This document shows positions 1-32,000 of a stretch of 32,000 nt of DNA, in pieces. The position numbers were made by a program, and so were the translations under genes. Source of the DNA: Geotalea daltonii FRC-32 (GTDB lineage: Bacteria; Desulfobacterota; Desulfuromonadia; Geobacterales; Geobacteraceae); assembly GCF_000022265.1 (NCBI RefSeq), contig NC_011979.1, forward strand, positions 3,420,001 through 3,452,000. Reading direction: 5' to 3'. The notes beneath the pieces are model-generated. The model worked only from the letters and a program-made list of their open reading frames with translations, was not told where the DNA came from and did no database searches. Each line of letters starts with the position of its first letter. Positions within the stretch are counted from its first letter, which is position 1.

Positions 1-70
1 AACATTTGCAGTTTTAACTTTTGAAATTTAGAGGCGCAGACCTTCTTCCGTGATCTAACAATTCTTGTGT

Positions 71-2554: not shown

Positions 2555-2674
2555 ATCAACCTCTTAGAATTTAGTATCTTTGTTCAACGCTAGGCTGACC
2601 GGCTTGACCGGTCCAGTCGTGAGTTGGTAGCCTCCCTCTAAGGCAAACTAAGCAGCGTCACTCATAGTTTTCCC

Positions 2675-4417
2675 TCAATTCCTAGAAAGCTTTTGAATTG
2701 CGGAGGCAAGGCCATTACGTAGGGATCTAACTGAATAGGCCTTTATCCCGGAAGTGTGTTCAGATAAATAGGATGCTACATACGACATAACTATTTCTAG
2801 GAAGCTCTTTTCTGCTTCAAGGAAGTCTATTATGTTGGAGGCTGAATACCTTGAGTCAACCCAATTTTGGAATTTAAGTATTGTGTCAGGACTACTTTTT
2901 ATAATAATGTTAAATAACCAGTTTGCATCAATGTCTGAAAGTACAGGAGTAGTCGCATGCTGTGTTTCATAAAACCGTTTAAAAAACTCATCAGGCTCGT
3001 TATCAAGCAAACTAAAGGTCTGTGTCACCTCTTCTTTTTGACCAATATTCTGCATCTCATCACAAATTAATTTTATGGTTGCTTTAACTGATCTGTATTC
3101 ATCTAGGTCGACATCATTAAAACTTAAAGGCGTCCATAGTATTTTATTGCACTCTAATTGTCCGGCAGCTCGAAGAACATTTAGCGCTGCAATGAATCCA
3201 TTCTCGATATCAACTGGGCTTTGAGTTATCAGCCTCTCTTTAGAAAAGAAAAACAACCTTTGAGCAAGGTTTATTAAGGTCACCGCATTTTTTATTTTAG
3301 CGCCCGCAATTTCTTCAAGAAAAGCTTTAGCTATAGTAGTCATAGACTCGTCACTGAGGAGCCAAAAATCACTATGAAACAGTTCTTCTTGAGTTCTGAC
3401 TTTAATGCTTTTGTCTTCAATATATTTGGACACATTGTCATCTAGTAGCTTTGTGTTTAGATATCCATATAGGATATAATTAAATAGACTTCCAAATTTA
3501 GGTATACCGTTGTGATTACCATGATAGTATTTTGATACTATTTTTCTAGTTACTGAGTTCTCATCTTGTTTAAATAGATAAAAGCTGGATGAAGCTTCTA
3601 AATGAGTTGCAATTTCCAGTATTGATTTATCATTAAGTAAGCCACTTTTATATTCATTCATGATAACAAGGGTAAAGTATAAAATTGAGTCTAATACATC
3701 TATATTTTCTATCGAAATGTAATCGCATACTGAATTGAATATGCTAAAGGCTTTGCTAATAGTTCTTATATTGTTGCATTTTGATATGGCGTAGTACTCG
3801 TCGAAAACCTTCTTAGTATTGGCGTAGGCGTGCTTTTTAGATGTGCCTGCAATTAACTTATTTACTACAGCATCCATGTCAGGAACATATCTGAATGTAT
3901 AACCGACTAACTTTTCCTTCTGAACAGTATATACGTCGAGGTTCTCAATCTTACTTTCATCGCAGAGGATTATCATTCTGATATGTTCATGCTCAACAAG
4001 CTTATTAAGATAACCAAGTACAGTATCAATCGGCATCTTTACGCGTTCCAGATCGTCAACACATAAAACTATATTACTAGCTCGCATGATTTCGTGAGCA
4101 TTATCCAAATCAATATGCTTTTGTGACAATGAGGATAATGCGCTAGTGACGTTGTTGGCTGATGTCAACCGAAGAAAATCAGAAATTGCAACAGTGATTA
4201 ACTGGTCAATTTCTATTTTAGACTGGATTCCATATAGGGAAATATAGGTTGTATTCCTCTCGCCATTAGGATAATCGATATAAACCCCAGCTTGTATGAC
4301 ATTTTCCCAAAAATATGTTTTACCACTTCCCCATTCTCCTGTTATTAACAATGAATACTCAGGGTGCATATCTCTTATGTACAACTTTATTGAGTCTTCC
4401 ATTTCTTTTAAGTTCAT
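2675..4417 (-). CDS. KAP-family P-loop NTPase
   Basis: 580-aa ORF. Walker A is GEWGSGKT (aa 27-34, nt 4316-4339), which fits the GxWGxGKS/T form typical of KAP NTPases. Walker B is IVLCVDDLER (D121-D122 at nt 4052-4057), which fits the hhhhDDLDR form. The long C-terminal helical region is uncharacterised. I saw no TM insertion in the NTPase domain. Confidence 0.7.
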   Translation of the reverse strand: MNLKEMEDSIKLYIRDMHPEYSLLITGEWGSGKTYFWENVIQAGVYIDYPNGERNTTYISLYGIQSKIEIDQLITVAISDFLRLTSANNVTSALSSLSQKHIDLDNAHEIMRASNIVLCVDDLERVKMPIDTVLGYLNKLVEHEHIRMIILCDESKIENLDVYTVQKEKLVGYTFRYVPDMDAVVNKLIAGTSKKHAYANTKKVFDEYYAISKCNNIRTISKAFSIFNSVCDYISIENIDVLDSILYFTLVIMNEYKSGLLNDKSILEIATHLEASSSFYLFKQDENSVTRKIVSKYYHGNHNGIPKFGSLFNYILYGYLNTKLLDDNVSKYIEDKSIKVRTQEELFHSDFWLLSDESMTTIAKAFLEEIAGAKIKNAVTLINLAQRLFFFSKERLITQSPVDIENGFIAALNVLRAAGQLECNKILWTPLSFNDVDLDEYRSVKATIKLICDEMQNIGQKEEVTQTFSLLDNEPDEFFKRFYETQHATTPVLSDIDANWLFNIIIKSSPDTILKFQNWVDSRYSASNIIDFLEAEKSFLEIVMSYVASYLSEHTSGIKAYSVRSLRNGLASAIQKLSRN

Positions 4418-4477
4418 TAAATTCTCATTATATTATTAGTAGTTTTAGCTAAGTTATATGGCTCTTTTACGCCCTGC

Positions 4478-5197
4478 TTACCGGCTTGCTTTAATAGCGT
4501 CAATAACCGTTTTCTTGACTTCATCTACTTTAAAAAAAACCTCAACTTCTTCTAAATGGAGATGTCTAACTTGCTTCATCATGAACACTACATTGCGATA
4601 TTTACCTATATAGAAGTCCTTTATTTCTTTACTTCCTTGGTTTTTTTCATAGTTTTCTAGGCACCAAATCAGATGGCTTAATTGTTCGCTTACATATGTT
4701 AAATCAAAGGATATTAGTTCTATTACACTTGTTCTGATGTCATCATATATACAAGAAATCGGGTGCGAAGGGTTTAGTTCGATTCTAATTGAATCATCTG
4801 AAATAGACCTTAATAACGTGAATACGTTAAAATCATTAGATTTGTACTTATGCTTTTGTTCAAAAAGTACTTTGTCAATAGTTTCAGCTATTCCGAATAT
4901 CAATTGCTGTAACTCTTCTAGCTTCTGCTGTGTTTTCATGTCTGTTAACTGACGTTTTTGTAGCAAAACAGTATATATAACACCAATAAAGGCAAGGAAA
5001 GCATAAATCGGATTTAACACGCCTCCAATAAAGTCACCAAAGGTGCCCCAGTCGCTTTGATTCGGCGATATGGGATATTTCATAATCCAGCCAAACCGAA
5101 TGAAGTACGCCAATGCACATAGAGCCAAAGGGACTAATGCAAGTAATACAAGATTGCGGATAAGCTTGTCGTCGATCATGTCTTTGTATTTATCCAT
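4478..5197 (-). CDS. Small membrane protein with two N-terminal TM helices; putAbiC-like (putative abortive-infection protein family)
   Basis: 239-aa ORF. The two hydrophobic helices are NLVLLALVPLALCALAYFIRFGW and IGGVLNPIYAFLAFIGVIYTVLL. The inter-helix motif WGTFGDFIGGVLNP...LLQ resembles the conserved core of Pfam putAbiC (PF16872) as I recall it. The C-terminal ~150 aa look soluble and helical. This is the first gene of the three-gene same-strand cluster. Confidence 0.5.
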   Translation of the reverse strand: MDKYKDMIDDKLIRNLVLLALVPLALCALAYFIRFGWIMKYPISPNQSDWGTFGDFIGGVLNPIYAFLAFIGVIYTVLLQKRQLTDMKTQQKLEELQQLIFGIAETIDKVLFEQKHKYKSNDFNVFTLLRSISDDSIRIELNPSHPISCIYDDIRTSVIELISFDLTYVSEQLSHLIWCLENYEKNQGSKEIKDFYIGKYRNVVFMMKQVRHLHLEEVEVFFKVDEVKKTVIDAIKASR

Positions 5198-5336
5198 CTA
5201 TATCTCACTTTCGGAGTATTATGTATGCCGATTTGTAATGTTAACATTTCTGCATTTCTGCCGCTAAAGGACTTGGGGCGCAAGTTTCTATCCTTGTTCC
5301 GGTTGTCGACCAACTCATTATTCACCGATCAGGTCG

Positions 5337-5463
5337 GCATCTAATATTATATTCCAGCATCTAATATTAGATACAGGCATGCAATATTGGATGCCACAAG
5401 GCATATAATAATAGATGCTTTTACCTGATGGGGCACTTCTCCTTTGCATCTAATATTATATGC
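5337..5463. repeat. Array of five 18-bp near-palindromic sites, consensus GCATCTAATATTAGATGC (candidate operator or iteron array)
   Basis: Copies: 5337-5354 GCATCTAATATTATATTC; 5357-5374 GCATCTAATATTAGATAC; 5377-5394 GCATGCAATATTGGATGC; 5401-5418 GCATATAATAATAGATGC; 5446-5463 GCATCTAATATTATATGC. The first three are phased at exactly 20 bp. The array lies 140-270 bp upstream of the ATG at 5197, on the island side of the GC transition. Confidence 0.75.
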
Positions 5464-5651
5464 TTTTCTAATTCCGCCCCCTTAACACTTATTTCCTTCG
5501 ATTACCAGTTCCCTGTTTTCCGCCGTTGCCATGTCGTTGCATCATATCTGGCGCAAGACCACCACTACACCAAAAATGCATGCAACTCAATGGGAAATCT
5601 AACATGATGGGGGTTTAAATGGAAATGGGGGAGAGACTCACCTGAGCAAGC

Positions 5652-5683
5652 GGCGGTGCCGCTACCGGCACCGCCACTTTTTT
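5652..5683 (+). terminator. Rho-independent terminator-like hairpin, canonical only in the + orientation
   Basis: Perfect 10-bp GC-rich stem GGCGGTGCCG (5652-5661) / CGGCACCGCC (5666-5675), with loop CTAC, followed by AC then TTTTTT (5678-5683). On the minus strand the stem is followed by GCTTGCTC, so there is no U-tract. It lies 35-43 nt downstream of the stop of the minus-strand giant gene (5718). No annotated + strand gene precedes it. Confidence 0.55.
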
Positions 5684-5717: not shown

Positions 5718-8700
5718 CTATTGACAGGTGCCGTCTGCAGATGTGTAGGCTGGGGTTGTCGCTTGCAGGGTGTTGCTGAAGGGTGAGAAGTCCCCTCCCC
5801 GGTATGCCCTCACCTGATAGGCGTATGCCTTCTGGGGTTCGATGGCCAGGGTGTCGGTGTAGCTGCCCGTATTGGGCACCGTTGTCACCAGCCCCATTTC
5901 TCCGGTGGGAAGCAGGCGCCAGATCTGGAAGCCGTCGGGATTTTCACAGGGGACCGGAGTGCAGGCGGCACCCGTGTAGCTCCATTCCAGTTTGATCTTG
6001 CCCGAATTCAGAGGGGTGACGGCATTAAGGCTTGGAGCACCGACGGCAGGGGTTTTCTGGCAGACAATGTTGCTTGGGGCCGAGTCACCGCCGGTGGTGT
6101 TCCAGGCGGTCATCTGATAGCAGTATTCCACGTTCTCCGTCAGGGAAGTATCCCCATGGGTAGTGAAGACCGGCACCAACGTGGGGCAGCCAATGGTTGG
6201 GCTGGTATAGTATCCGCAATAGAGTGTCGAATAGGGGATTGCCAGGTTGTTGATCTGGCTCCACGGTCCATTGCCGCCGATTGAGCGCAAGATCTTGTAA
6301 TTAGTGGCGCCGTAGACCACCTGCCAGGTAAGATCTATTCTCGCCTCGCTGATCAGCTTTGTCGTCAATGAAGGTGCAGCCGGGGTTGTGGTGGCCGATT
6401 GGATATTGCTGGGCACTGAATAACTGCCGGCGGTATTTTTTGTGGAGACGCGATAATAGTAGAGGGTACCGGCAGAAAGGCCGCTGTTGGTATAGGTGAT
6501 GGCACCTTGGGCAGGGGTAGCCACCTGCGACCAGTTGGCGCCGTCGGGGCTTCGCTCTACCTTGTACCCGTCATTGCCGGCAACGTCGTTCCATGAAAGG
6601 ATGATTTGGCCGGTGGTGATGCCGGACAGGGTATTCAGCACCGGCGGCGTGATGGGCAGGGTGGCTGCGCTCTGCTCGTTGGATGCGACAGAGTATGCGC
6701 CAACACTGTTTTTGGTATAAACGCGGTAGTAGTAGGTAGTGTTGGCAGCGGCAGTGGTGTCGCTGTAGATGGCAACATCTGTTACAGGTGTTGCCAACTG
6801 TGACCAGGCGACAGTGTCGGTTTTGCGCTCGATCTTGTAGCCGGTATTGCCGGTGATGTTGGTCCAGGAAAGATCGATTTTTGACTGGGTGATGCCGGTA
6901 AGAGGGTTGAGAACCGGCGCGTCAAGCCACGTGGTCTGTGTGACAGTAGAACTCCACGGCGAATCCCCCGCCAGATTGGCCGCGTTCAGCCTGAAACAGT
7001 AGGTGGTACCCGATAGCAGGCTGCTCACTGTCGTAGTAATCGAGTTCTGGGCAACCGACGTGGAAGTAACGCCGGTCCAGTCTTCGGTGGTGCAGTCTGC
7101 GCCGTTTCGCACCTTGTGCTGCAGATTATAGGAGGTTTCCCCGGTTTTGTCGGTCCAGGAAAGTTTGATCTGGGAACTGGAAACTACCGAGGTGCTGAAG
7201 CTCGGCGTAGGGGGAACGGTAGTTGCCATGAACTCGTTGCTGAAGGCTGAAAAGCTGCCATCGGCCAGCTTGTAGCGAATTTTGTACTTGTAGGTGTAGC
7301 CGGCTGTAAGCCCGCTGTTGTTAAAGACAACCGTATCGGCAGCCAGTGGTGTCGGTGTCCCATTGACGTAAACACTCCAGGAGCCGGTGCCTGGACTTGC
7401 CGGAGGAGTCGATTGGTATGTGGCTGCACTTCGCCACACTTCATATCCCACATCACCGGTCACATCGATCCAGGCCAGGTCGATCTGGCCTTGGGACACG
7501 CCGGTGACGCTGGTGAGCGTTGGCGGACCATAGATGGTCACGCATGCCTCGTTGCTGTCACTCGAGCTTGTGCCATTGTAGGGCTGCACCTTGAAGCAGT
7601 ATGGGATATTCATGCTCAATCCACTGACCGTATAAATGGTGGTATTTTGTGCCAGCGGCAATCCGCTGCCGGAGAGGACGACACCGTCTTTCAGCACCCG
7701 GTAATTCGTTTCACCAAAGACATCCGACCAGGAAAGGCTGACCGAGCTGTCCGTTGCGGCAGTGGCAACCAGATTTGTCGGACCGGAAACATTCGTCCGG
7801 GCCGTTACTATGGTGCTGGTATCCGAATTGACGGTTCCCACAGCCGTAACCCTCAACCGGTAAAGGTTGCCGGGGGTAAGACCGCTAATGTTCCTCGTTG
7901 TTGCGTCAACGCCCAGGTTGACCGTGGTCCAGGCGGTCCAGTAGTAATCATAGCCTGTATTCGAGGCGCAGTAAGTTTGATTCAGACAATCGGAATACTC
8001 CAGTTTGTAACCACTCTCAAAACTGTTGGGGTCGCTCCAGTTGACGGAGATTTCGCTGGTGGAAACGGTGGTTGCCGATGTAATGGCCGGCGTCTGCAGC
8101 TTGGTTCGCCCGGACTGCACCAGGCTGGCAGCGGAATCACCATCTGGATTTGTTGCCCGCAGGCGATAGTAATAGAGAACTCCGGCAACGACGGTGGTAT
8201 CTGAGAAGCTGACCGCGGCAGCACCCGGAATGGCAATAACGGTCCAGGTGCTGTTGTCCGTGCTCCGCTCTACCTTGTAACCGGTAGCCCCGGTAACTGC
8301 AGGCCAAGTCAAATCGATCTTGGCGGCGGTAATCCCGGCCAAGACATTGAGAACAGGGGCAACCTGCACATTGCTGGCGAGGGAAAGCCCGGCACTGTTG
8401 ATGGTATTGATTCGATATTGATAGACTACTCCGGCAGTCAGGGTTGTATCGTGGTAAAGCAAAGTATCGGGAGCGAGATTGTTGCCGATCTGGGTCCAGC
8501 TTCCTCCGCCTGCCATTCTCTCCAGCCGGTAGCCGCTGTTGCCGGGTATATTGTTCCAGCTGACATCCACTGACGTTGGCGACAGGAGAGACAGTTGATC
8601 AAGAACCGGCGCCTGGAGGGTTGTGGTGGCGCAGGTGGTAATCTTTCGGGAAACCAGGCTGCCGTTGTAGGCTTCGATACGGTAGCAGTACTGGGTATTG

Positions 8701-11700
8701 CCGTTGAGGCCACTGTCAACAAAAGCAGTCGTACCGGCAGAGGCGGTGTTGATTGGGGTCCAGATACTGGAAGAGGTTATGGGGCCAAGGGTCCGCTCGA
8801 TGCGGAAGCCGGCGCCGGCAGTATTGCTGCTCCAGGCAAGATCGATCCTGCTGTAATCTGCCTGTGGGGTTGCCGTGAAAGGCGCAGGAACGAGAATGAA
8901 ATTATTGACCTGCTTGATCACCAGATAATCGGCATTTCCGGTTGCATTGGCCGAGCTTCCGGCAATGAATGCCTCCCCCTGATAGTTGACGGCGATGGAG
9001 CTGGCTTCATCATTGCCATTGGCAGCGCCGTTGTAAGTGGTGGCACCCAACAGCGCCCCCTCATGGTCATAGATGAGTGACATAACGTCAATGGTGGCAC
9101 CGTTGCTGGTGTTGCCGGCAACATAGATATATCCCGAGGCGTCCACAGCCATGGCGATCGCCTGATCGTCGTTCACCGGGCGCTGCAGACTTTTCTGCCA
9201 GACCACATCCCCGGCGGCATTGTACCTGACCAGGGTCACGTCATGATCACCGGGGCCGGTCAATGTGGTCCCGGCAACGATGATCGCTCCGTCAATGGGG
9301 TCAATTCTTAACGATACTCCATCGTCATCACCGTTTGCCGGCCCGGCAACCGGGCGTTCCCAGATCCTCTGGGCGATATTGCCGCTACCGCTGTACTTGA
9401 TGGTGTAGATATCCCTGTTGCCGGCGGCGGTCTTTGCCGATCCGGTTACGTACACATCTCCTGCCGTATCTGTGGCAATGGAATTGCCCCGGTTATCCCC
9501 ACCGGAGATTACGCTGTAAAGGTCGGACCAGATGAGGGCGCCGTTGGTGCCGCTGTATTTTGCGGTAAAGAAGTTGTAGATGTTGGAACCTGGAGCCGTT
9601 TCGCTGTAACCGGTAACGTAGACGTTGCCGTCCGGCCCGATGGCTACCGCACTGGGGATGTCGTCCCCGCCACCGTCAAAGGGCACCGCGGCCCAGGAGG
9701 AAACTGCATTGCCCAGCTCATCCAGGAGAGGTGCCGCAGCATATTTGACCACATAAATGTCCTCGTTACCTGCTGCATTCTTGCCATAACCGATGACGAC
9801 GATGTTGTTACCGGCATCGGTGGTGGTGTCAATGGCCGTCGCCCGGTCATCGATGGCACCGGGGCCGTTGTACTGGCTGTGCCACAGTTCCGGAGGCCCT
9901 GCTGCAGGGTATTTCAAGGTATAGATGGAGTTGATGTTCCTCTGGGCCGGTGCGTAGAAAAGTTGCGAGTAGCCCGAGACGATGGCATTGTTGCTGCCAT
10001 CCACCGCCACGCATTTGGCCACATCCATTTCACTATCCGCATCATCGTAAAGGTGACTCCAGATGATACTTTTATCCACATTGCTCAATTTGAGGGTGTA
10101 GTAGTCGAATCCCCCCACGGCACGGAGGCTGTAACCGGTGACTACCGGATTGTTGTCCGGACCGACGGCAACGGCATTGGCGAAATCATCCATGTCATCG
10201 GGGTTGTTGTACAGATAGCTCCAGCTGGGGGCGATAAAATTGACGAACACAGTCAGGGCGCGGGCCTCGTTGCTGTAGTGGGAATCGCCGTTGGCGGCGT
10301 TGTAAGCTCGTACCCGGTAGTAGTAATAATTATTGGCAATCAGCCCCTCATCGGTATAGGTGGTGATCCCTGCTCCGACAGCGCCAATCTGGGCAAAGGT
10401 TCCCTGTTCTCCCAGCTTCCTCTCGATCTTGAACCCATCCTCGTTGCCGGAGTTATCGGTCCAGGAGAGCCCGACGCTGGTGCTTGAAATGGTTGCGGTT
10501 GCCAGACTGGTGGGGGGGTTGAGGGCACCGGCGTCGTATTTGATCAGGTAGTAGTCCAGATCGCTGCCGTTGTCCGACCAGCCACCCACCAGAACGTCTC
10601 CTGCCGGCGAAAATCCAAGGCCGACCGGGCGATCGTTCTTACCTGCAGTTCCATTGAAGCTGCTGTGCCACAACTGGTTACCGTTGTCTCTTTTGTATTT
10701 GATAGTCTGGAAGTCGTAATTTCCCGCCGCCACCGTATAGCCGGTAACGAATACATCCCCTGCCTCGTCGACGGCGATGCCGGTGGCTATTGCCACATCG
10801 GTGTTGCCGTCTCCCGAGTCGAAATTCTGCTGCCATACGATAGCACCGTTACTGCCTGAATAGCGGGCAGTATAAAAGTCGTTGGTGCCGGAAAGGGTCC
10901 AGGTATAGCCCGTAACATAGACATCACCCCCCGCGTCCACATAAAGGCCGTTGGGTTCGTCGTTGAAGGCTCCGTTGTAGGTCCTCTCCCAGACAATGGC
11001 ACCGGTCGCACCGTTGTGTTTGGCAGTATAGATATCCAGGTCCAGGTTGTTTGCCGCCGTACCGCTGACGATTACGTTGCCGCCGGCATCCATCTTCACC
11101 TGTTTCCCGGAACATACATATCCGGCCCCTGATGAGTAGCGCCGCTCCCACAGGTTGCTTCCGTCGAAGCCATATTTGATGGTGAGCAGGTCATAGGAAG
11201 TGCCGTTCCATGATTGACCCGTTACAGCAAGTCCGTCAATGCCTGCGGCAAGGGAATACAGCTGGTCGGCGCCTTGGGCTGTCCCGTTATAGGTAGCAGC
11301 CCAAAGGGGAGTCCCGTCAGGATCAGGGCCCCCGGCGCTGTATTTGAGAATGACGAGATCGTCATTGCCCGAAGCATTCTGGGTGGTCCCGCCAACATAG
11401 ACATTATTGAGGGAGTCTACCGAAACTGCGGTGCCCAGATCGTTGCCACTGGCCCCCCCGTTCCAGGTATGCTGCCAAAGCACGACTCCGGTTGCTCCGC
11501 TGTACTTGATGGTGTGGATATCCTTGTTCGTCCCGTTCCAGACATATCCGGTTACGATCACATCATTGGCTGCATCGACCACAATGGCGGTGGCCTTGTC
11601 TGAGGCTCCCGCCCTGTCATAAAAGGCACTCCAGGCTATGTCCGATCCATCCGCCTTGAATTTGACGGTGTAGTAATCGTCGTTGGTATCACCGGCAAGA

Positions 11701-11918
11701 TTCCGGTAGCCGGTTACCAGGAAATTCCCCTGGGGATCCACAATGGAAGCCTGAGCCTCCTGGGTACCGGCTTTGAGGTCGCCCTTTTGCCAGACGATAT
11801 CGCCGCCGGCGGCGAAAGAGTCGCTGAGGGAAAGGTTGACAAACGCCAGGATCAGGAATAGCCCCCCCGTGAATTGACAAAATATCCGGAAAAAGTAATT
11901 TGATTTTATAGTTACCAT
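5718..11918 (-). CDS. Giant secreted protein: signal peptide, SBBP beta-propeller region 1, FN3, SBBP beta-propeller region 2, then 11 tandem FN3 domains
   Basis: 2066-aa ORF. The N-terminal signal-like segment is FTGGLFLILAFVNLSLSDSFAAGG. The SBBP-type blade pattern recurs (D..a.avD..GNvyVtGyt....DyyTiKY...G..lW), for example DIHTIKYSGATGVVLW, DLLTIKYGFDGSNLW, DFYTARYSGSNGAIVW, DIYVVKYAAAP and DIYTIKYSGSG. By my count there are 12 FN3-like units with the LSWtD.tGe.GYkiERs...YyYRV signature. Approximate map: propeller 1 at 11800-10530, FN3-1 at 10515-10250, propeller 2 at 10240-8900, FN3 x11 at 8890-5760. Confidence 0.85.
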   Translation of the reverse strand: MVTIKSNYFFRIFCQFTGGLFLILAFVNLSLSDSFAAGGDIVWQKGDLKAGTQEAQASIVDPQGNFLVTGYRNLAGDTNDDYYTVKFKADGSDIAWSAFYDRAGASDKATAIVVDAANDVIVTGYVWNGTNKDIHTIKYSGATGVVLWQHTWNGGASGNDLGTAVSVDSLNNVYVGGTTQNASGNDDLVILKYSAGGPDPDGTPLWAATYNGTAQGADQLYSLAAGIDGLAVTGQSWNGTSYDLLTIKYGFDGSNLWERRYSSGAGYVCSGKQVKMDAGGNVIVSGTAANNLDLDIYTAKHNGATGAIVWERTYNGAFNDEPNGLYVDAGGDVYVTGYTWTLSGTNDFYTARYSGSNGAIVWQQNFDSGDGNTDVAIATGIAVDEAGDVFVTGYTVAAGNYDFQTIKYKRDNGNQLWHSSFNGTAGKNDRPVGLGFSPAGDVLVGGWSDNGSDLDYYLIKYDAGALNPPTSLATATISSTSVGLSWTDNSGNEDGFKIERKLGEQGTFAQIGAVGAGITTYTDEGLIANNYYYYRVRAYNAANGDSHYSNEARALTVFVNFIAPSWSYLYNNPDDMDDFANAVAVGPDNNPVVTGYSLRAVGGFDYYTLKLSNVDKSIIWSHLYDDADSEMDVAKCVAVDGSNNAIVSGYSQLFYAPAQRNINSIYTLKYPAAGPPELWHSQYNGPGAIDDRATAIDTTTDAGNNIVVIGYGKNAAGNEDIYVVKYAAAPLLDELGNAVSSWAAVPFDGGGDDIPSAVAIGPDGNVYVTGYSETAPGSNIYNFFTAKYSGTNGALIWSDLYSVISGGDNRGNSIATDTAGDVYVTGSAKTAAGNRDIYTIKYSGSGNIAQRIWERPVAGPANGDDDGVSLRIDPIDGAIIVAGTTLTGPGDHDVTLVRYNAAGDVVWQKSLQRPVNDDQAIAMAVDASGYIYVAGNTSNGATIDVMSLIYDHEGALLGATTYNGAANGNDEASSIAVNYQGEAFIAGSSANATGNADYLVIKQVNNFILVPAPFTATPQADYSRIDLAWSSNTAGAGFRIERTLGPITSSSIWTPINTASAGTTAFVDSGLNGNTQYCYRIEAYNGSLVSRKITTCATTTLQAPVLDQLSLLSPTSVDVSWNNIPGNSGYRLERMAGGGSWTQIGNNLAPDTLLYHDTTLTAGVVYQYRINTINSAGLSLASNVQVAPVLNVLAGITAAKIDLTWPAVTGATGYKVERSTDNSTWTVIAIPGAAAVSFSDTTVVAGVLYYYRLRATNPDGDSAASLVQSGRTKLQTPAITSATTVSTSEISVNWSDPNSFESGYKLEYSDCLNQTYCASNTGYDYYWTAWTTVNLGVDATTRNISGLTPGNLYRLRVTAVGTVNSDTSTIVTARTNVSGPTNLVATAATDSSVSLSWSDVFGETNYRVLKDGVVLSGSGLPLAQNTTIYTVSGLSMNIPYCFKVQPYNGTSSSDSNEACVTIYGPPTLTSVTGVSQGQIDLAWIDVTGDVGYEVWRSAATYQSTPPASPGTGSWSVYVNGTPTPLAADTVVFNNSGLTAGYTYKYKIRYKLADGSFSAFSNEFMATTVPPTPSFSTSVVSSSQIKLSWTDKTGETSYNLQHKVRNGADCTTEDWTGVTSTSVAQNSITTTVSSLLSGTTYCFRLNAANLAGDSPWSSTVTQTTWLDAPVLNPLTGITQSKIDLSWTNITGNTGYKIERKTDTVAWSQLATPVTDVAIYSDTTAAANTTYYYRVYTKNSVGAYSVASNEQSAATLPITPPVLNTLSGITTGQIILSWNDVAGNDGYKVERSPDGANWSQVATPAQGAITYTNSGLSAGTLYYYRVSTKNTAGSYSVPSNIQSATTTPAAPSLTTKLISEARIDLTWQVVYGATNYKILRSIGGNGPWSQINNLAIPYSTLYCGYYTSPTIGCPTLVPVFTTHGDTSLTENVEYCYQMTAWNTTGGDSAPSNIVCQKTPAVGAPSLNAVTPLNSGKIKLEWSYTGAACTPVPCENPDGFQIWRLLPTGEMGLVTTVPNTGSYTDTLAIEPQKAYAYQVRAYRGGDFSPFSNTLQATTPAYTSADGTCQ

Positions 11919-14900
11919 GGCGTCACCTTATTCCAGCTGTTATCGGGCCAGGCGCCGCCCGGATGGCAGTTGACCCCATACTGATCGGCACCACGGGGGA
12001 AACTGCCGCTGCTTGGGTTGGGATAGTTGGAATATTCAAAGGTAGCGGGGCCGTTAGACCCTGCCTGTCCGCCGGAAGCCACCCTTCCCCTGTGTCTTGT
12101 ATCAAGGCAGTTGGTCTGCATGAGGCGAGGCATGCCGCTTGTGTGTGGCGCATGGCACTTGGAACAGCTATAGGAATGCTGCGTGTTGGCTCCCCATCCC
12201 TTGACCGACTCGTGCACCCGATCGGCACTTTTCCAAGGCTGGTTCTTGTTGATGCCGTCGGTGAGCTTCGACTTGTTGTGACAGCGCAGGCAAAGCCCGG
12301 CGAAACTGCTGTCGTCCTCTGAAATCCTGGCCCCACCGAAGGTGTTCTGGTCGGTGTAAGCCCCCGGCGGCCCGTATAGCTTCTGCCCCCCCGGCGGATT
12401 AGCGGTATCTGCTATGGCCGCATCTTCCCGATATGGTGATGTAAGCCAGGTTCCCTTAAGCATCGGCACGGCAAGGGGCTGCTTCGTTCCCAAAACCGGG
12501 CTTACCCCATGGGGATCGTGGCAGGGTGTGCAGAGACCATTGATCTTGTTTTGCGCAGCAGTTGTATTGTTGAGGAAACTGGACGATTTCAAGTGCCCAC
12601 CCTTGATGGCCATATTCTTGTAAGAGTAACGGCTCATATATCCGGCAGTATCCGCCCCGAAGCGGAACGAATCAAGGTAGCCCCTGATGGGTGCAGTTGC
12701 ACCGAATGTGGACTCATATCCCCATGGGGTTACGCCCACGTTCTGGTTCAGGTGACAGTCGAAGCATTGACCGGCCCCGGCATTATAAGGATTGATGGAA
12801 CCGGCAGCGCTATTGGCCGAAGCCTTGTAGCTCATGGCGTAGCCCCCCTTGCCCGCCTGTGTTTCTTTGAGATTGGCTCCGTTGTATGTACCGTTGAAAG
12901 TCAGGTAACTTGAGGTCACACCTACTACCTTCGAGCCGTGGGAACTGTGACAGTCGAAACACTGTACGTTCTGGGCGCCGTTTCTGGTATTGGCAATGGA
13001 GCTGTCGAGGCCATTGATGGCATCGAAGCCGCCCTGGTTGGCTACTGCGTTGCCGTGGGCGGAAACCGCCTTGGTTACCCGGTCCTTCTGATTGGCACCG
13101 GGATAGGTGGTGGAGTTGTACTTGCCCCAAGACACGGTGCCCTGCTGTGAATAACGGGCAGCAACGCTCTGCAGATCCCATGCATACTGGCGCGGCGTCT
13201 TGCAGTCGTTGAACGGCACGCTGTCATTGTTCTGGTCACTGTGGCAGCTGATGCAGACATTGGTGAGCTTGGTCACTTCCGTCCGCTCATTGGCAGTGCC
13301 GATATTGCTGGCAAGGAAGCTGACGGCAGTCGTATAGAGCTTATAAACGGTGGGCCTGATGCCGGGTTCCCAGACGACCAGATCCACGGGCGCATTCTTC
13401 GCCGACGAATAATTCTTGTAGTTGTAGCCCTCATGGTGCTTCACATCGATGAGTCCTTCCGGTGTCGATTCCCAGTGGCACGAGTAACAATGCTTGTTGG
13501 TTACCGTCACCCCTTGCACATGATGGGAATTGGCTTTCATCTGCCCCATGATGTCCATACGCATGCCGATGGTGCCGCTGTGACACTTTGTGCAGTCCCT
13601 GGGCAGGCCGAACCCTGAATGGCGCGGCACCGGCTTGTTTTGGTGGCAGGTGTTGCATGGCTGGTCATCGGCATGGCTGTCGGTAAAGCGATGTTCGTGA
13701 CAGGAAGTGCAGACGCGGCTGGCATTGTGTCCGTCGCCGCCATCCACGCGGTAATGCTGGCTTCCGGCAGAATGGCAGACGTTGCAGATGCCGTTGTATG
13801 GGGCATTGATCCGGGCATAATCAAGCCCGCTCTGTTTCCTGGTGAATGAAACATCGGCCCTGGTTTTCGGAATGCCGAAGGTCCCCTCGGTGGAGGTGGC
13901 AACCTTGTTCTGGATCATAAAGATATTGCCGTCCCCATGGGGATCATGGCAGTCCCAGCAGAATTTGCCCCCTTTCCAAACGCCATCCTGGACATAGGCC
14001 CGGTTGTGTTTATAGCCAAAGTGGACAGAAGATGCCCTGGCCTTCTGAGGCTTGATGAACCGGTACTCGGCTGAAGAAAATGGCCTGAAGCCAAGAGAGT
14101 ACTTCAGTGGTTTGTTCGCGGGAGCGGAATGACAGCTGTTGCACTTGCCTCCCGTATCGTCGTCATGGCATTTGAGGCAGACCCCCATCATCAGGTACTG
14201 ATTTTTCACATCCCCCTTCTGGTCGGCAGTCCATATACCGGCACCGGCATTGTGCCGTTTCATATCATTGGTCGGGCTGGCCGGATCAACAAAATGGCAT
14301 AACGTGGTCAGACAGGATGTACCTCCACCGGACATGGGCCGGTGATCCGGACGGGGAGCGACACTGCCGTCTGGCCAGGTTGTCGAAGGGTCTGCCGGCA
14401 GCGAAGCCAGCTGCGGGGCCAGTGATTCGTCGTTGTCATGGCATGAGAGACATTCGCTGTCGAGGCCGATCATGTGACAGTAGACGCATTCTTTTTCGAA
14501 ACGGTTGGTATACTGGTCATGCTGCCGCAGCCGGAAAGGGTTGCCGGTGTCATTGTGCAGGATATTGTTATCATGACAGTACCAGCAGGGGTTGCCGGGG
14601 AAATTTGCCGCCGGATTGCCGCTTGCCGGGTATGGTCCTGCGGATATAGGCCTGCCATGTCCTGTGGTTGCCCATTCGGTAAGGTTTATTCTGGCCTGGG
14701 TGCTGTAGATCTTGAAGCCGAAGCTGTCCACATCGGGGCTGGTGGTGCCGTGGCACGTAAGACAGATGACACCCGTGTTCACCGAGCTTCCCCACTGGGG
14801 GTCTGTGCCGCCGGAATGACAGGCGGTGTTGGAACAGGTCTTGGTGACGGGATTATATGATCCCCCCTGCTTGAATACCACGTCCTTGGCCTTGTTCACG

Positions 14901-16753
14901 TGGTACGAACCATTGAGATGGGAGACCTCAGACATGCTGCCAAGGGGAATACCGGTGGCATGACAGTCGGTGCAGATGCCGTTGGTAATGGTGGCGGTAT
15001 GGCACTGATCGCAGGTAAAATTGGTATCTGCGTGTCTCTGGTGTGAATTGGCGCGGTCCGAACCGGAACCCTGGTTGGGGAACATGGGAGTTGCTGCCTT
15101 CCATTCCTGGCCGGCAGGCCAGCCGGCTTTGGCAGTCCAGACCTTACCGGTGCTGTCGGTCCTTCCATCATGGCAGAGGGTGTTTGAGCATGTTCCACTG
15201 GGATGGCCATGACAGCTGTTGCAGTCCGTTTTTGGCGCAGTCCAGGCAAAGGGACGCACGTCTTCAGGGTTAGTGGTGCCGTCGCTATGGCAGTAGACGT
15301 TGTCGCAGATCTTGTTGGCTGCGTCATACACCGGGGCAGACCTGCCGACTATCGCCCACTGGCTGCCCATTGACACATCCTTCACGCCATTGGTATGCCT
15401 TGTTTTATCGATGATATTGCCGTTGGCATCGATGGTGGCATTATGGCAGTAGGTACAGGGGTATCTGCGTATCCATTGGGGACCCACCAGTCGCGAATGG
15501 CCGTTGGAAGTAATATTGACGTAAGGGGCGCAGAAGCCCTTGTCACTGTTCCAGACGCCGCCCGTATCGGCACAGTTGGCGGGGGTATTGTCCTGGGTGC
15601 GCCCCTTGTGGCACGAGTAGCACTGCATGGGGGCGGTATCCGTCCATTTGACTGAAAAGGTCGGTGCACCACCGTCTGCATTACTGTGGCAATAGGCATT
15701 GCAGCTTTTATCTTCCGAACCGTAATTGCCCCCCTCCCTGAAGGAGACATCCTTGTTTTTGTTCACATGGCTGGCTTTGTCGGCAATGGTATCGCTGCCG
15801 TTTGCCGTCGTCTTATGACAACGCTCACAGCTATAGGCATAGCCGGAACTCCCGGTATGCTTTCCATGCCTGCCGCTGAGGTTCGTGGTATCGCCAGCGC
15901 TATCGTGGCATGAATTGCAGGATGAGGCGAATGTGGCCCCCCATGTCGGTGTAGTTTTGGGAGCTCCCTCCTGCCCGTCGCTGTGGCAGTAGAGGTTGGA
16001 ACAGCTGCCGTTTCTGTCTTCGGCCCGGGTCCGGCTCGGCAGATAGTTGGGATAGCTCAGATTCTGTGGTTTGCCATAGCCGCCGCCGCTGTTTGGCGCC
16101 ACATTAAAGGACAGGATCAGGTTTCTGCCGACACTGGTGGCATGGGAAAACGGGTTGGCACCGGCGAAATGACTGACATGGCAGATGCCGCAACTGCCAC
16201 TACCGGTGCCATAGTAGTCACCATGCTTCTTGCCAGGTCCAGAGGCAGCTGGATGATTGCCATCAGCCGGTGGAGTATCGTGGCAGGCCCCGCATCCGGT
16301 TTCTAAAGTAAGGACGGCACCGCCCCAGACAGGGGTTTCTTTCTCGAAATGGCAATTGACGTTCGTGCAGGTGCCAAGTGAAGGGGTTGAGGTCTGGGGG
16401 AAGGGAGTGGTACTGTTTTTATATGTAGCAGCCTGGGGAGAATTCTTGATGTTGGAGGACAATCCGATTACCCCATCGCGATGGCTCGTGGTGTAGCTGT
16501 CGCTGCCGGGATGGCACTTGGTGCAGCTAGTGGCATTGGCGCCGATAGCAAGATGGTTGCGATGTGTTCCCTGAAATCCGCCGGTGGTGATGTTGCGGTA
16601 GGGGGCGTCGGTGGGACGGAAATCCATGGCGGACCTGGTACCGTGGCAGTCATAGCAGCTTATTGAGGCGCCTGCACTGGTAACGGTCAGAAAAAAAGTT
16701 GTTGCTACTCCCAGCCAGATAAGAAAACGCTGCCGGTATTGAACATTGCTCAA
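11912..16753 (-). CDS. Giant multihaem c-type cytochrome (about 29 CXXCH plus 6 CX4CH and 1 CX3CH motifs), secreted
   Basis: 1613-aa ORF. The N-terminal signal-like segment is FLIWLGVATTFFLTVTSAGAS. Manual count gives 29 CXXCH motifs (CYDCH ... CSKCH). Modules of the form CX4CH-(~20 aa)-CXXCH recur, for example CTNVNCH...CGACH, CSNLYCH...CNSCH, CDNVYCH...CNSCH and CSNTACH...CLTCH. These match the Geobacter CxxxxCH...CXXCH domain (TIGR01904) from memory. The C-terminal half has CxxCHdPHG motifs typical of the doubled-CXXCH family. The start is TTG at 16753, preceded by GGGGGGGAACC. Confidence 0.9.
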   Translation of the reverse strand: MSNVQYRQRFLIWLGVATTFFLTVTSAGASISCYDCHGTRSAMDFRPTDAPYRNITTGGFQGTHRNHLAIGANATSCTKCHPGSDSYTTSHRDGVIGLSSNIKNSPQAATYKNSTTPFPQTSTPSLGTCTNVNCHFEKETPVWGGAVLTLETGCGACHDTPPADGNHPAASGPGKKHGDYYGTGSGSCGICHVSHFAGANPFSHATSVGRNLILSFNVAPNSGGGYGKPQNLSYPNYLPSRTRAEDRNGSCSNLYCHSDGQEGAPKTTPTWGATFASSCNSCHDSAGDTTNLSGRHGKHTGSSGYAYSCERCHKTTANGSDTIADKASHVNKNKDVSFREGGNYGSEDKSCNAYCHSNADGGAPTFSVKWTDTAPMQCYSCHKGRTQDNTPANCADTGGVWNSDKGFCAPYVNITSNGHSRLVGPQWIRRYPCTYCHNATIDANGNIIDKTRHTNGVKDVSMGSQWAIVGRSAPVYDAANKICDNVYCHSDGTTNPEDVRPFAWTAPKTDCNSCHGHPSGTCSNTLCHDGRTDSTGKVWTAKAGWPAGQEWKAATPMFPNQGSGSDRANSHQRHADTNFTCDQCHTATITNGICTDCHATGIPLGSMSEVSHLNGSYHVNKAKDVVFKQGGSYNPVTKTCSNTACHSGGTDPQWGSSVNTGVICLTCHGTTSPDVDSFGFKIYSTQARINLTEWATTGHGRPISAGPYPASGNPAANFPGNPCWYCHDNNILHNDTGNPFRLRQHDQYTNRFEKECVYCHMIGLDSECLSCHDNDESLAPQLASLPADPSTTWPDGSVAPRPDHRPMSGGGTSCLTTLCHFVDPASPTNDMKRHNAGAGIWTADQKGDVKNQYLMMGVCLKCHDDDTGGKCNSCHSAPANKPLKYSLGFRPFSSAEYRFIKPQKARASSVHFGYKHNRAYVQDGVWKGGKFCWDCHDPHGDGNIFMIQNKVATSTEGTFGIPKTRADVSFTRKQSGLDYARINAPYNGICNVCHSAGSQHYRVDGGDGHNASRVCTSCHEHRFTDSHADDQPCNTCHQNKPVPRHSGFGLPRDCTKCHSGTIGMRMDIMGQMKANSHHVQGVTVTNKHCYSCHWESTPEGLIDVKHHEGYNYKNYSSAKNAPVDLVVWEPGIRPTVYKLYTTAVSFLASNIGTANERTEVTKLTNVCISCHSDQNNDSVPFNDCKTPRQYAWDLQSVAARYSQQGTVSWGKYNSTTYPGANQKDRVTKAVSAHGNAVANQGGFDAINGLDSSIANTRNGAQNVQCFDCHSSHGSKVVGVTSSYLTFNGTYNGANLKETQAGKGGYAMSYKASANSAAGSINPYNAGAGQCFDCHLNQNVGVTPWGYESTFGATAPIRGYLDSFRFGADTAGYMSRYSYKNMAIKGGHLKSSSFLNNTTAAQNKINGLCTPCHDPHGVSPVLGTKQPLAVPMLKGTWLTSPYREDAAIADTANPPGGQKLYGPPGAYTDQNTFGGARISEDDSSFAGLCLRCHNKSKLTDGINKNQPWKSADRVHESVKGWGANTQHSYSCSKCHAPHTSGMPRLMQTNCLDTRHRGRVASGGQAGSNGPATFEYSNYPNPSSGSFPRGADQYGVNCHPGGAWPDNSWNKVTPW

Positions 16754-17108
16754 GGTTCCCCCCCGGGATCATGCCATTTTAAATTGAAATCCTCCGGAAG
16801 CTGCGATACTTTTCCCACCGCGTTTGGACCGAAACGATGGGAAATTTAACAGTGGTCATTGTTAAGGCAGCAAGATATTCCAGAGATAATGAGCAACTTT
16901 TATACCCTTAACCCCTTCATTTAATGAGATTAATTCGTGAGAAGTAATTGTTAGTTTTTTCAGGTAGATAGAGAGACCAGGAAGGGAAAAACTGCTAGGG
17001 GGTATCGTCTGACAATCGATCAAATAGCGGAGAAATTAAACTTGTTTCTGTGATTAGACTATAAGAACAGTCGCCCGCATTACAACTGAGCTAAAATTTT
17101 CTTATTTT

Positions 17109-30223: not shown

Positions 30224-32000
30224 AAAAGAACGACGTGAAACCGGACGCGACTGCAAGCAGCACACCGCTGGCCATTATCGGCATCGGCTGCCTCTTCCCC
30301 CAGGCCAATGATCCTGATGCCTACTGGTCCAATGTTGCCGAAGGTATCGACGCCATCACGGAAATACCCGCCACCCATTGGCAGATCGCCGACTATTTCG
30401 ACGGTGATCCCAAGTCCCCGGACCGCACCTACGGCCGCAGGGGTGGTTTCATTTCACCGATCCCCTTCAATCCCATGGAATTCAACATTCCCCCCAACAT
30501 CCTGGAAGCCATCGACACGTCCCAACTGCTCGGCCTGGTGGTGGCCGGCCAGGCGCTTAAAGACGCGGGCTATGGGCCGGGAAGCGATTATGACCGCAAC
30601 CGCGCCAGCGTCATCCTCGGCGTTACCGGCACGCTTGAGCTGGTCGTGCCCCTGGGAGCGCGGCTGGGCCATCCCGTGTGGCGCAAGGCGCTCAAGGAAG
30701 CCGGAGTGGATGAAAATATCGCCGAGGACGTGGTGCAGCGTATCGCCGACTCCTATGTCTCCTGGCAGGAAAATTCGTTCCCCGGTCTGCTCGGCAACGT
30801 GGTGGCAGGGCGGATCAGCAAGCACTATGATTTGGGGGGAACCAACTGCGTCGTTGATGCCGCCTGCGCCAGCTCCTTCAGCGCACTGCACCTGGCCGCC
30901 ATGGAACTGGATTCGGGCAAGGCCGACATGGTGGTAACCGGCGGCATCGATACTTTCAACGACATCTTCATGTACATGTGTTTCAGCAAGACTCCTGCCC
31001 TCTCCCCCACCGGCAATGCCAAACCCTTTGACGCCTCGGGAGACGGTACCATTCTCGGCGAAGGCCTGGGCATTGTCGTTATCAAGCGGCTGGCTGATGC
31101 AGAGCGGGACGGAGACAGGATTTATGCAGTTGTTCGCGGCATCGGTTCCTCCAGCGACGGCAAGGGGGATGCCATCTATGCACCCAGTGCCGGGGGCCAG
31201 AAAAAAGCCCTGGTTGATGCCTATAATCGGGCAGGAGTCACTCCCGACAGCATCGGGCTCATAGAAGCCCACGGAACCGGCACCAAGGTGGGGGATGCCG
31301 TTGAGGTAAGCGCTTTGCGCGACGTCTATGGTGAAGCAGATACCCCGTGGTGCGCCCTCGGCTCGGTCAAGTCGCAGATCGGCCATACAAAAGCCTCGGC
31401 AGGCGCCGCAGGCCTCATCAAATCGGCCCTGGCCCTGCACCACAAGGTGCTTCCCCCGACCATCAAGGTGGAAAAGCCGCTGAAAGAGGTGACAGCCGAG
31501 CGTACTCCGTTCTATCTTACCACCCGGAAGCGACCCTGGCTTCCCCGTGACAACGGGCCCCGCCGGGCCGCCGTCAGTGCTTTCGGCTTTGGCGGTTCCA
31601 ATTTTCATGTGGTCCTTGAGGAATACAAACCGGCAAAAGAAGCAGCAGACTGGGACGGCAATGTCCAGCTCGTTGCCCTGTCGGCACAGGGCGCCGATAA
31701 GCTGCAGGCTGCCCTGGACAACCTGTCTGCTTCTGCTTCGTGGGAAGAAGTGCGGGCTTTTGCCGCAAAAAGCCGTGCCGCCTTTGACAGCAGAGCTCCC
31801 TTCCGCATGGCTCTTGTCGTTGAACGGGAAAAAACCAATCTGGGTACTGTTGTCAATAACGCCAAGATGATGCTCGGCAAAAATGCCGCCAGTTCCTGGA
31901 GCACCCCCGATGGCGCTTTTTTCGCCCATGGTTCGCCCCCGGGAAAGCTGGGCATGCTCTTTCCGGGCCAGGGAGCCCAATATACCGGTATGCTCAGAGA
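30220..32000 (+). CDS. pfaA: PfaA-like multidomain polyketide/PUFA synthase, 5' part (KS domain followed by the start of an acyltransferase domain); truncated by the window end
   Basis: This gene is not in the ORF track because no stop codon occurs before the window end. The frame opens at GTG 30220, which overlaps the pfaD stop (GTGA). My translation reads LAIIGIGCLFPQANDPDAYWSNV..., then the KS active-site DAACASS (Cys codon 30865-30867), EAHGTGTKVGD, KSQIGHTKASAG and FGFGGSNFHVVLEE, then GMLFPGQGAQYTGM (AT N-terminus) at the window edge. The 508-aa minus-strand ORF at 30454-31980 is its antisense shadow. Confidence 0.85.
   Translation, partial: MKKNDVKPDATASSTPLAIIGIGCLFPQANDPDAYWSNVAEGIDAITEIPATHWQIADYFDGDPKSPDRTYGRRGGFISPIPFNPMEFNIPPNILEAIDTSQLLGLVVAGQALKDAGYGPGSDYDRNRASVILGVTGTLELVVPLGARLGHPVWRKALKEAGVDENIAEDVVQRIADSYVSWQENSFPGLLGNVVAGRISKHYDLGGTNCVVDAACASSFSALHLAAMELDSGKADMVVTGGIDTFNDIFMYMCFSKTPALSPTGNAKPFDASGDGTILGEGLGIVVIKRLADAERDGDRIYAVVRGIGSSSDGKGDAIYAPSAGGQKKALVDAYNRAGVTPDSIGLIEAHGTGTKVGDAVEVSALRDVYGEADTPWCALGSVKSQIGHTKASAGAAGLIKSALALHHKVLPPTIKVEKPLKEVTAERTPFYLTTRKRPWLPRDNGPRRAAVSAFGFGGSNFHVVLEEYKPAKEAADWDGNVQLVALSAQGADKLQAALDNLSASASWEEVRAFAAKSRAAFDSRAPFRMALVVEREKTNLGTVVNNAKMMLGKNAASSWSTPDGAFFAHGSPPGKLGMLFPGQGAQYTGMLR

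Follow-up and report, generated by a model that had tools for sequence, protein, structure and literature searches.

The DNA considered here, hereafter the window, is a stretch of 32,000 nt from Geotalea daltonii FRC-32, a species once placed in Geobacter (contig NC_011979.1, positions 3,420,001 to 3,452,000). Its minus strand carries two adjoining giant genes, one encoding a multihaem c-type cytochrome (ACM21475.1, hereafter the cytochrome) and the other, immediately downstream, a secreted protein composed of SBBP beta-propeller blades and fibronectin type III (FN3) domains (ACM21474.1, hereafter the partner). A survey of genomes and metagenomes shows that the pair is a conserved, self-contained two-gene module, whose genes are almost never found apart and which duplicates and diverges as a unit. 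The original prediction for this locus, made from the sequence alone, placed both open reading frames (ORFs), of 1613 and 2066 amino acids (aa), exactly, pointed rightly to Desulfuromonadota, and proposed a cytochrome tethered to or displayed on a long FN3/propeller stalk.

Table 1. Features of the two-gene locus and its borders, in window coordinates
Feature	Position	Strand	Basis or remark
Cytochrome gene ACM21475.1, 1613 aa	11912..16753	-	ORF, TTG start; 100% identical to the G. daltonii FRC-32 protein
Cytochrome Sec-type signal peptide, residues 1-29, ...TSAGA/SIS, no lipobox	16667..16753	-	Sequence reading, n-h-c regions
Cytochrome C-terminal six-haem domain, residues 1095-1613, isoelectric point (pI) 8.9, ends ...N-x-V-T-P-W	11915..13471	-	Common to split and fused relatives
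Stop/start overlap, 7 nt, ATGGTAA	11912..11918	-	Partner ATG inside the last two cytochrome codons (CCA TGG TAA)
Partner gene ACM21474.1, 'fibronectin type III repeat protein', 2066 aa	5718..11918	-	ORF, identical to the GenBank entry
Partner signal peptide, residues 1-36, ...SDSFA/AGGD, no lipobox	11811..11918	-	Sequence reading
First beta-propeller, 8 SBBP blades, residues 37-468, pI 4.2	10515..11810	-	Iterated profiles, AlphaFold2 (AF2)
Linker FN3 between the propellers, residues 472-549	10272..10505	-	Iterated profiles, AF2
Second beta-propeller, 8 SBBP blades, residues 562-1010, pI 4.1	8889..10235	-	Iterated profiles, AF2
Tail of 11 tandem FN3, residues 1015-2049, then a 17-residue end ...DGTCQ	5772..8876	-	Iterated profiles
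G+C-rich hairpin, 43 nt past the partner stop codon	5652..5675		Likely end of the transcription unit
Non-coding region, 355 bp, presumed promoter region of the bicistron	16754..17108	-	No ORF, no Rfam match

The cytochrome, entered in GenBank as 'cytochrome c, 37 heme-binding sites', is a member of the CxxxxCH/CxxCH-domain c-type cytochromes, with scores above the cut-offs of both Pfam PF09698 (73.9 bits against 21.7, in three stretches) and NCBIfam TIGR01904 (136.3 bits against 27, in five stretches). The approximately 29 haems originally attributed to it match the number of CxxCH motifs but not the total, as one CxxxCH and six CxxxxCH motifs, the latter being the signature of the matched domain, raise the count to 36, or about one motif per 45 residues. 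Thirty of them fall within residues 30-1100 and six within residues 1100-1613. Family members carry 31-39 motifs as a rule, with a median of 33 and a maximum of 56; ACM21475.1 exceeds the median because of an insertion of about 150 residues relative to most of the family (residues ~200-400; window 15550-16150), which brings three extra motifs at residues 279, 309 and 351. More than 30 haem motifs are conserved, and distal His residues are invariant across 16-30 sequences.

The signal peptide is the sole hydrophobic window of the cytochrome, and the protein is predicted to be exported and to have its haem attached in the periplasm. The mature chain is basic (pI 8.2), as is its C-terminal domain. 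Conservation peaks at residues 900-1300, and what can still be recognised of the cytochrome in the most distant pairs is confined to its C-terminal 200-700 residues. The proteins of the family nearly always end in ...N-x-V-T-P-W, and the window pair fits the general pattern of a T/S-P-W end on the cytochrome followed by a propeller-FN3-propeller start on the partner. The terminal Trp was considered as an outer-membrane beta-signal and rejected, as the ending ...WPDNSWNKVTPW does not show the alternating hydrophobic pattern.

Iterated profile searches within the partner resolve a total of 16 SBBP blades and 12 FN3 domains. Two propeller blocks and a 12-unit FN3 stalk had been predicted; the number of units was right, while the stalk has to be redrawn, with one FN3 serving as the inter-propeller linker and 11 forming the tail. 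Both domains exceed their Pfam cut-offs (SBBP, 62.5 bits against 20.5; fn3, 141.8 bits against 25), and ACM21474.1 thus fits the SBBP beta-propeller/FN3 secreted proteins. Its repeats are assigned by Pfam and NCBIfam to SBBP, the delta-60 repeat and the LipL53-like SBBP family; no NHL repeat match was obtained for the partner in these databases, and one of 120 homologues has a precomputed PF01436 hit. The FN3 units of the tail are old and mutually divergent, with pairwise identities of 20-51%. A penultimate Cys is very frequent at partner C-termini (...TCQ, ...TCP, ...SCP; here window 5718-5723), for which an intermolecular disulfide is one possibility.

The AF2 model of partner residues 37-1100, computed with 30 homologues, reaches a predicted local distance difference test score (pLDDT) of 89.9 and contains 32 strands in the first propeller and a seven-strand sandwich in the linker FN3. 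The block of the second propeller holds 31 strands, and 32 only if the preceding short strand 516-519 is assumed to close the ring, so the eight-bladed closure of both propellers is suggested by strand count. In structure searches the head resembles propeller-plus-FN3 ectodomains, e.g., those of Sevenless and ROS1, and its best single-domain match is the propeller of the enzyme CylK (template-modelling (TM) score ~0.45); nothing related to cytochromes is among the matches. Columns invariant among 30 aligned partner heads are almost all structural Gly, Trp, Asp and Tyr, and the lack of any invariant His, Cys or Met among these heads argues against a redox cofactor in the propellers.

A conserved two-gene module

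Linkage was scored in both directions. A forward scan, in which an alignment of 16 cytochromes was run against the species of GTDB, each represented by a single genome, yielded 79 loci, of which 71 were informative, having at least 1.5 kb of sequence downstream of the cytochrome. In 70 of these 71, a double SBBP propeller is encoded on the same strand by a gene whose start lies at most 1 kb from the cytochrome end, the sole exception being a contig of a Polyangiaceae metagenome-assembled genome (MAG; locus L048), where a NosD-like gene comes right after the cytochrome. The reverse scan used a partner-head alignment on metagenome contigs and found a cytochrome directly 5' in 46 of 47 informative loci (43 double-propeller and 3 cut-off); the only informative double-propeller locus without a cytochrome is a distant relative with 28% identity. 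Fourteen further informative loci, classed as single or short propeller matches (27-35% identity), are all without a cytochrome. Pairing is therefore overwhelmingly beyond chance in both directions, and the co-conservation of the two genes, named beforehand in the original prediction as one of the points on which it could fail, holds in nearly all informative loci.

More than half of the 79 genome loci belong to Geobacterales (42, including Geobacter, Geotalea and Geoanaerobacter), and nine to other Desulfuromonadia. The others come from Nitrospirota/Thermodesulfovibrionia MAGs (12), unclassified 'Deltaproteobacteria'/Thermodesulfobacteriota (14), one Desulfobulbia MAG and the Polyangiaceae MAG mentioned above. 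Several genomes hold more than one copy: four pairs occupy four unrelated chromosomal places in the complete genome of Geobacter sp. DSM 9736, three occur in Geobacter sp. OR-1, and a second pair was located by tblastn elsewhere in the G. daltonii genome. The orthologous pair of G. metallireducens, Gmet_2470/Gmet_2469 (57% identity), has the same 7-nt overlap.

The overlap of stop and start codons, correctly noted in the original prediction, is itself recurrent: the partner start overlaps the cytochrome gene in 80 of 118 scorable pairs (119 in total), and by exactly 7 nt in 49 of the 118. Together with the adjacency of the genes, this geometry implies that they are co-transcribed and translationally coupled, as far as can be predicted from sequence. 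The two proteins also diverge in step, pairwise distances of cytochromes and partner heads being correlated (68 pairs; Mantel r = 0.76, a value reached in 0 of 2000 permutations). This co-divergence and the natural fusions described below support a physical coupling of the cytochrome with its partner.

Clustering of the genes flanking the 79 genome loci, L001 and L002 revealed no recurrent porin and no constant third gene. Two further genes lie past the partner in about 17 loci (L018:20522-23396, L049, L065, L074, L075 and about 12 more). One encodes a protein of ~675 aa that combines CarboxypepD_reg domains with a right-handed beta-helix of the NosD type, the other a CarboxypepD_reg protein of ~265 aa. 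This window has neither gene, and their products may be optional accessory subunits.

Conservation is distributed unevenly along the partner. The propeller-FN3-propeller head is constant, whereas the tail ranges from ~900 to 3500 residues and changes in content, so that partners of different loci span 200-450 kDa and 1900 to 4500 aa. Among orthologues and paralogues the tail consists of FN3 only, as here, or of FN3 with DUF2341, LamG, He_PIG and Big_9. The FN3 array is thus the part that is replaced or extended, and the propeller head is the part that is kept.

In about a quarter of the relatives of the six-haem domain, a haem-free tail is joined to the cytochrome itself. A search of 1.84 billion representative proteins with this domain (residues 1095-1613) gave 208 clusters at E <= 1e-30, a number that rises to 400 at E <= 1e-3. 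Within the best 150 representatives, 109 end shortly past the last haem motif, 79 of them in Trp, and the other 41 carry a haem-free extension of more than 300 and up to 1290 aa. According to Pfam, these extensions are built of FN3, FN3-like, LamG, Ig-like and Gly-rich modules, and one contains an RCC1-type propeller. Direct fusions of cytochrome and SBBP propeller were sought among the same 150 representatives and discarded as a possibility, since no SBBP blades occur in the fused forms; the fusions found are to tails. Twenty of the 41 fused tails match tails of separate partners from paired loci, at best with 75% identity over 500 residues and in several cases with 45-52% over ~540 residues, to the very C-terminus, and others match the LamG module that comes after the propellers in another partner. 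The one fused locus with readable context has no partner gene downstream. In locus L161 (3-6524), the gene for the fused cytochrome/RCC1-propeller protein P0333 is preceded by another giant gene of 2173 aa, cut by the contig end.

Since the same tails occur either on the cytochrome C-terminus or behind a double propeller, the propeller can be read as a docking adaptor. By this Rosetta-stone inference, which is not a demonstration, the double propeller most likely acts as a non-covalent substitute for a peptide bond. A terminal module of ~400 aa ending in ...EHxxYxxxYNTR(E/I)F(L/S)P is shared by the partner C-termini of L084, L105 and L119 and by many fused cytochromes (P0337, P0317, P0355 and others). 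It has no relative in Pfam or the PDB, is absent from the partner of this window, and could be an anchoring or sorting domain.

Surroundings of the pair

Directly 5' of the TTG start of the cytochrome lies a G-rich sequence resembling a ribosome-binding site, GGGGGGGAACC. A promoter scan of the region upstream of the cytochrome gave one weak sigma-70-like match (17085-17058), not above chance, and no riboswitch or other RNA element was found there or upstream of the pair in 12 related loci. Two tandem c-di-GMP-I (cyclic di-GMP class I) riboswitch aptamers are located just upstream of the cytochrome gene in L018 (9291-9544, minus strand); they lie on the opposite strand and serve the divergent gene, not the pair. 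At the other end of the bicistron, the hairpin at 5652-5675 is predicted to end the minus-strand transcript, although its T-run lies on the plus-strand side; a terminator scan of the window returned nothing above chance. Between the partner end and the first gene beyond it, at 5337-5465, there are five copies of a palindromic unit of ~18-20 nt, GCATCTAATATTAGATGC, spaced 20-45 nt apart, which look like the operator array of a dimeric regulator.

This first gene belongs to an island of low G+C content (34-41% against ~55%) that occupies ~5 kb (window 1-5200) directly past the hairpin, 3' of the partner gene. The island encodes an 827-aa DUF4062+HEAT protein matching the PADLOC candidate system PDC-S60 (E 5e-33), a 580-aa KAP-family NTPase matching PDC-S49 (E 1e-72) and a 239-aa protein with two transmembrane segments and no family match, and is probably a horizontally acquired defence islet. 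Upstream of the cytochrome, two TPM genes and a LemA gene are followed by housekeeping genes (SpoU methylase, DedA/VTT, YkuD, MeaB, enoyl-CoA hydratases, a protein with a B12-binding domain, CobO, a tRNA, a chemoreceptor and PfaD).

The absence of a porin from the flanking DNA, on which the original prediction insisted, was borne out. Nineteen window ORFs of at least 100 aa were compared with Pfam, and a subset with NCBIfam, without any porin or beta-barrel match; three of the 19 look spurious, overlapping or lying antisense to family-assigned genes. Window ORFs without a family match are likewise three in number, namely the 239-aa island protein, a 508-aa ORF whose composition resembles a spurious antisense frame, and a 209-aa ORF at 30308-30937 (plus strand).

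Proposed mechanism and alternatives

The observations fit together best if the propeller head docks the tail of the partner onto the cytochrome and the resulting two-protein complex works at the outer surface, an explanation that, taken as a whole, appears somewhat likelier to be right than wrong. Both products would cross by the Sec pathway, and the cytochrome would receive its ~36 haems in the periplasm. The acidic head of the partner (pI 4.1-4.2) would bind the basic, conserved C-terminal part of the cytochrome (pI 8.9), as proposed on the grounds of co-divergence, charge complementarity and natural fusions. Docking would thereby join a long modular tail to the cytochrome non-covalently, consisting of 11 FN3 units here and of FN3 together with lectin- or adhesin-like modules in other copies; relatives without a propeller protein would achieve the same by fusing a homologous tail straight to the cytochrome C-terminus. 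Release of the complex to the outer surface or matrix is the least certain step and might plausibly proceed by type II secretion, which is meant as a suggestion only; an extracellular location is favoured because of the length of the tail, the types of its modules and the ectodomain-like fold of the head. Outside the cell, the tail would hold the cytochrome against the polysaccharide matrix, a mineral or a partner-cell surface, or direct it there, and the cytochrome would carry electrons from conduits encoded elsewhere in the genome. The literature searched offers a single functional hint, from co-cultures performing direct interspecies electron transfer (PMC10989804): both Gmet_2470 and Gmet_2469 are expressed in them, and the level of Gmet_2470 is 5.7-fold higher when the other species is G. 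sulfurreducens than when it is Methanosarcina barkeri.

It is tempting to extend this scheme to a plug-in contact system, in which a single-chain 'nanowire' segment of ~36 haems, a double-propeller socket and an interchangeable adhesin tail choosing the target would operate without a dedicated porin or polymerisation. The extension is tentative and probably claims too much. If true, paralogous pairs with different tails would represent different 'addresses', each standing for one kind of contact, be it with polysaccharides of the matrix, with the surface of a particular mineral or with a partner cell, and the fused forms would be the hard-wired version.

Several points weigh against docking at the outer surface. 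Complex formation, localisation and the role in electron transfer are all inferred. Reading of the sequences reveals no lipobox, no transmembrane or second hydrophobic segment, no beta-barrel and no recognised sorting signal in either protein, and both are predicted to be soluble and Sec-exported; the PSORT-type prediction quoted in the literature for Gmet_2470 is 'unknown'. The AF2 model of cytochrome residues 414-1613, based on a 30-sequence alignment, is unusable (pLDDT 35.8). The invariant C-terminal Trp of the cytochromes could owe its conservation in part to the overlapping ATG (CCATGG) and not to a docking peptide. Finally, the fused tails share only generic FN3 similarity with the pure FN3 tail of this window. 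For the original interpretation the balance is mixed. It is partly supported overall: the coupling of the two genes is very well supported, the wire-like character ascribed to the cytochrome is conjectural, and display of the cytochrome on an FN3 stalk, with no lipobox, transmembrane segment or sorting signal to hold either protein, is one of several possible geometries.

The Sec peptides, as the sole export signals, together with the absence of any outer-membrane or secretion signal and the 'unknown' assignment of Gmet_2470, would also suit a periplasmic assembly, in which the partner would be a scaffold and the 36-haem protein would store electrons or act as a bridge for them, neither of the two leaving the periplasm. 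This arrangement is nevertheless unlikely. Partners with 11-30 FN3, lectin and Ig modules reach sizes at which the extended array, estimated from typical FN3 dimensions, should exceed the width of the periplasm; LamG, DUF2341, He_PIG and Big_9 are typical of surface or extracellular proteins, and the nearest structural analogues of the head are ectodomains. Slightly less credence still can be given to an enzyme with its own wire, whose propellers, in the manner of the eight-bladed pyrroloquinoline quinone (PQQ) dehydrogenases or of cd1 nitrite reductase, would be catalytic or cofactor-binding and would have their substrate outside the cell, with the cytochrome as a dedicated electron acceptor or donor. 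Such a reading draws on the eight blades per propeller, the CylK propeller as best single-domain match and the strict pairing with a redox protein, but the heads offer no invariant residue of the kinds that bind haem, copper or another redox centre. Moreover, the fused relatives keep tails without an SBBP propeller, so the propeller is dispensable where the tail is covalently attached, which fits an adaptor and not a catalytic centre.

The modules of the tail also raise the question of whether electron transfer is involved in the function of the partner at all. It might be a surface or biofilm adhesin independent of electron transfer, with the cytochrome as its anchor or passenger, given that FN3, LamG and DUF2341 are adhesin-like and that an NHL propeller protein of G. 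metallireducens has been interpreted as acting via adhesion (bioRxiv 10.1101/2022.05.06.490989). More than 30 conserved haem motifs and invariant distal His residues, however, indicate that the redox function of the cytochrome is itself strongly selected, and a mainly adhesive system is deemed as improbable as the catalytic one; it overlaps with the docking explanation and does not exclude it. The least probable of the alternatives casts the propeller protein as a helper, required solely so that the giant cytochrome can fold, be protected or be exported, and not contributing to what the cytochrome does. A dedicated chaperone or export factor would likewise be expected to be translationally coupled and to co-occur strictly, yet a chaperone needs no variable adhesin-type tail of 1000-3500 aa that diversifies between paralogues, nor would its tail be expected to become permanently fused to the cytochrome in other lineages.

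Comparison with known systems

Porin-cytochrome conduits (MtrCAB; OmbB-OmaB-OmcB, PccF/G type, ExtABCD) likewise employ multihaem cytochromes for extracellular electron transfer and occur in the same organisms, but consist of a beta-barrel with a pair of periplasmic and lipoprotein cytochromes, which is absent from the window and the related loci. The pair was considered as such a conduit and ruled out, there being no beta-barrel gene, a single cytochrome gene and no lipobox Cys. The contrast with these conduits drawn in the original prediction is not apt and deserves little weight, since free-standing Geobacter cytochromes and NHL-propeller clusters also lack a porin. OmcS, OmcE, OmcZ and PgcA of Geobacter are free-standing outer-surface cytochromes encoded without an adjacent porin and dependent on conduits encoded elsewhere. 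They resemble the cytochrome described here as Sec-exported multihaem proteins with no porin gene alongside, but are subunits of 3-8 haems, the Omc ones polymerising into filaments, whereas the present module has ~36 haems in one chain and a dedicated non-haem partner. Searching the PDB with a profile built from 16 family members gives no chain at E <= 0.01, so that no kinship in sequence can be detected with any solved structure, those of OmcS, OmcE and OmcZ included.

Large multihaem cytochromes fused to S-layer domains are known from the archaea ANME-2 and 'Ca. Methanoperedens'. They, too, join a very large cytochrome to a non-haem surface scaffold, as the fused relatives do here, but to our knowledge are always one polypeptide and have no propeller adaptor. 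Within the bacteria, the 'most complex' Geobacter cytochromes with 34-37 haems, among them Gmet_2470, named a 34-haem cytochrome, belong to the same protein family as ACM21475.1. This class was noted in comparative genomics of Geobacter (PMC2996986), and a survey of Desulfuromonadia cytochromes makes no mention of propeller or FN3 partners (PMC11492766). The literature searched treats the Gmet_2470-type cytochrome alone, in expression tables, and lists the partner only as 'Fibronectin, type III'; no publication describing the pair as a unit was found in the searchable literature, where absence is no proof.

Geobacter-type bacteria encode dozens of uncharacterised giant cytochromes, the largest with 34-37 haems. 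A strict partner, multiplication as a unit with diversified tails and tail fusions elsewhere make of one anonymous cytochrome of this kind a defined machine of two parts, for which a clear hypothesis can be framed. The module occurs in a genetically tractable species (Gmet_2469/2470), in groundwater Nitrospirota and in other, uncultured Thermodesulfobacteriota, and a better understanding of it would matter for the reduction of minerals, for electron transfer between species and for bioelectrochemical systems.

Clusters with NHL propellers share with the module a secreted multihaem cytochrome beside a beta-propeller protein and the lack of a beta-barrel gene. One such propeller gene, Gmet_0556 of G. 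metallireducens, presumably adjoins Gmet_0557/0558. Multihaem cytochrome clusters of Desulfovibrio ferrophilus IS5 (DFE_0448-0451 and DFE_0461-0465) contain NHL beta-propeller proteins and no porin, and these propellers were proposed as protein-protein interaction sites stabilising an outer-membrane cytochrome complex (PMC5815863, PMC9769857). A similar remark was made for the NHL repeat protein Gmet_0556 and for UetH/UetI of 'Ca. Tenderia' (bioRxiv 10.1101/2022.05.06.490989). In view of these clusters, the idea of replacing the barrel with a propeller has precedents, and the components of the pair come from known families. The NHL clusters, however, combine single 6-7-bladed proteins of ordinary size with several small cytochromes, whereas the module described here links one cytochrome of 31-56 haems strictly one-to-one with one protein of 200-450 kDa that has two eight-bladed SBBP propellers and a long modular tail, and exists in both split and fused forms. 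As far as the searchable literature goes, it is the strict linkage, the double eight-bladed SBBP head, the diversifying tails and the split/fused duality that are new. SBBP-type propellers thereby gain a proposed role in docking cytochromes and, by extension, NHL propellers beside cytochromes in other bacteria gain a testable one.

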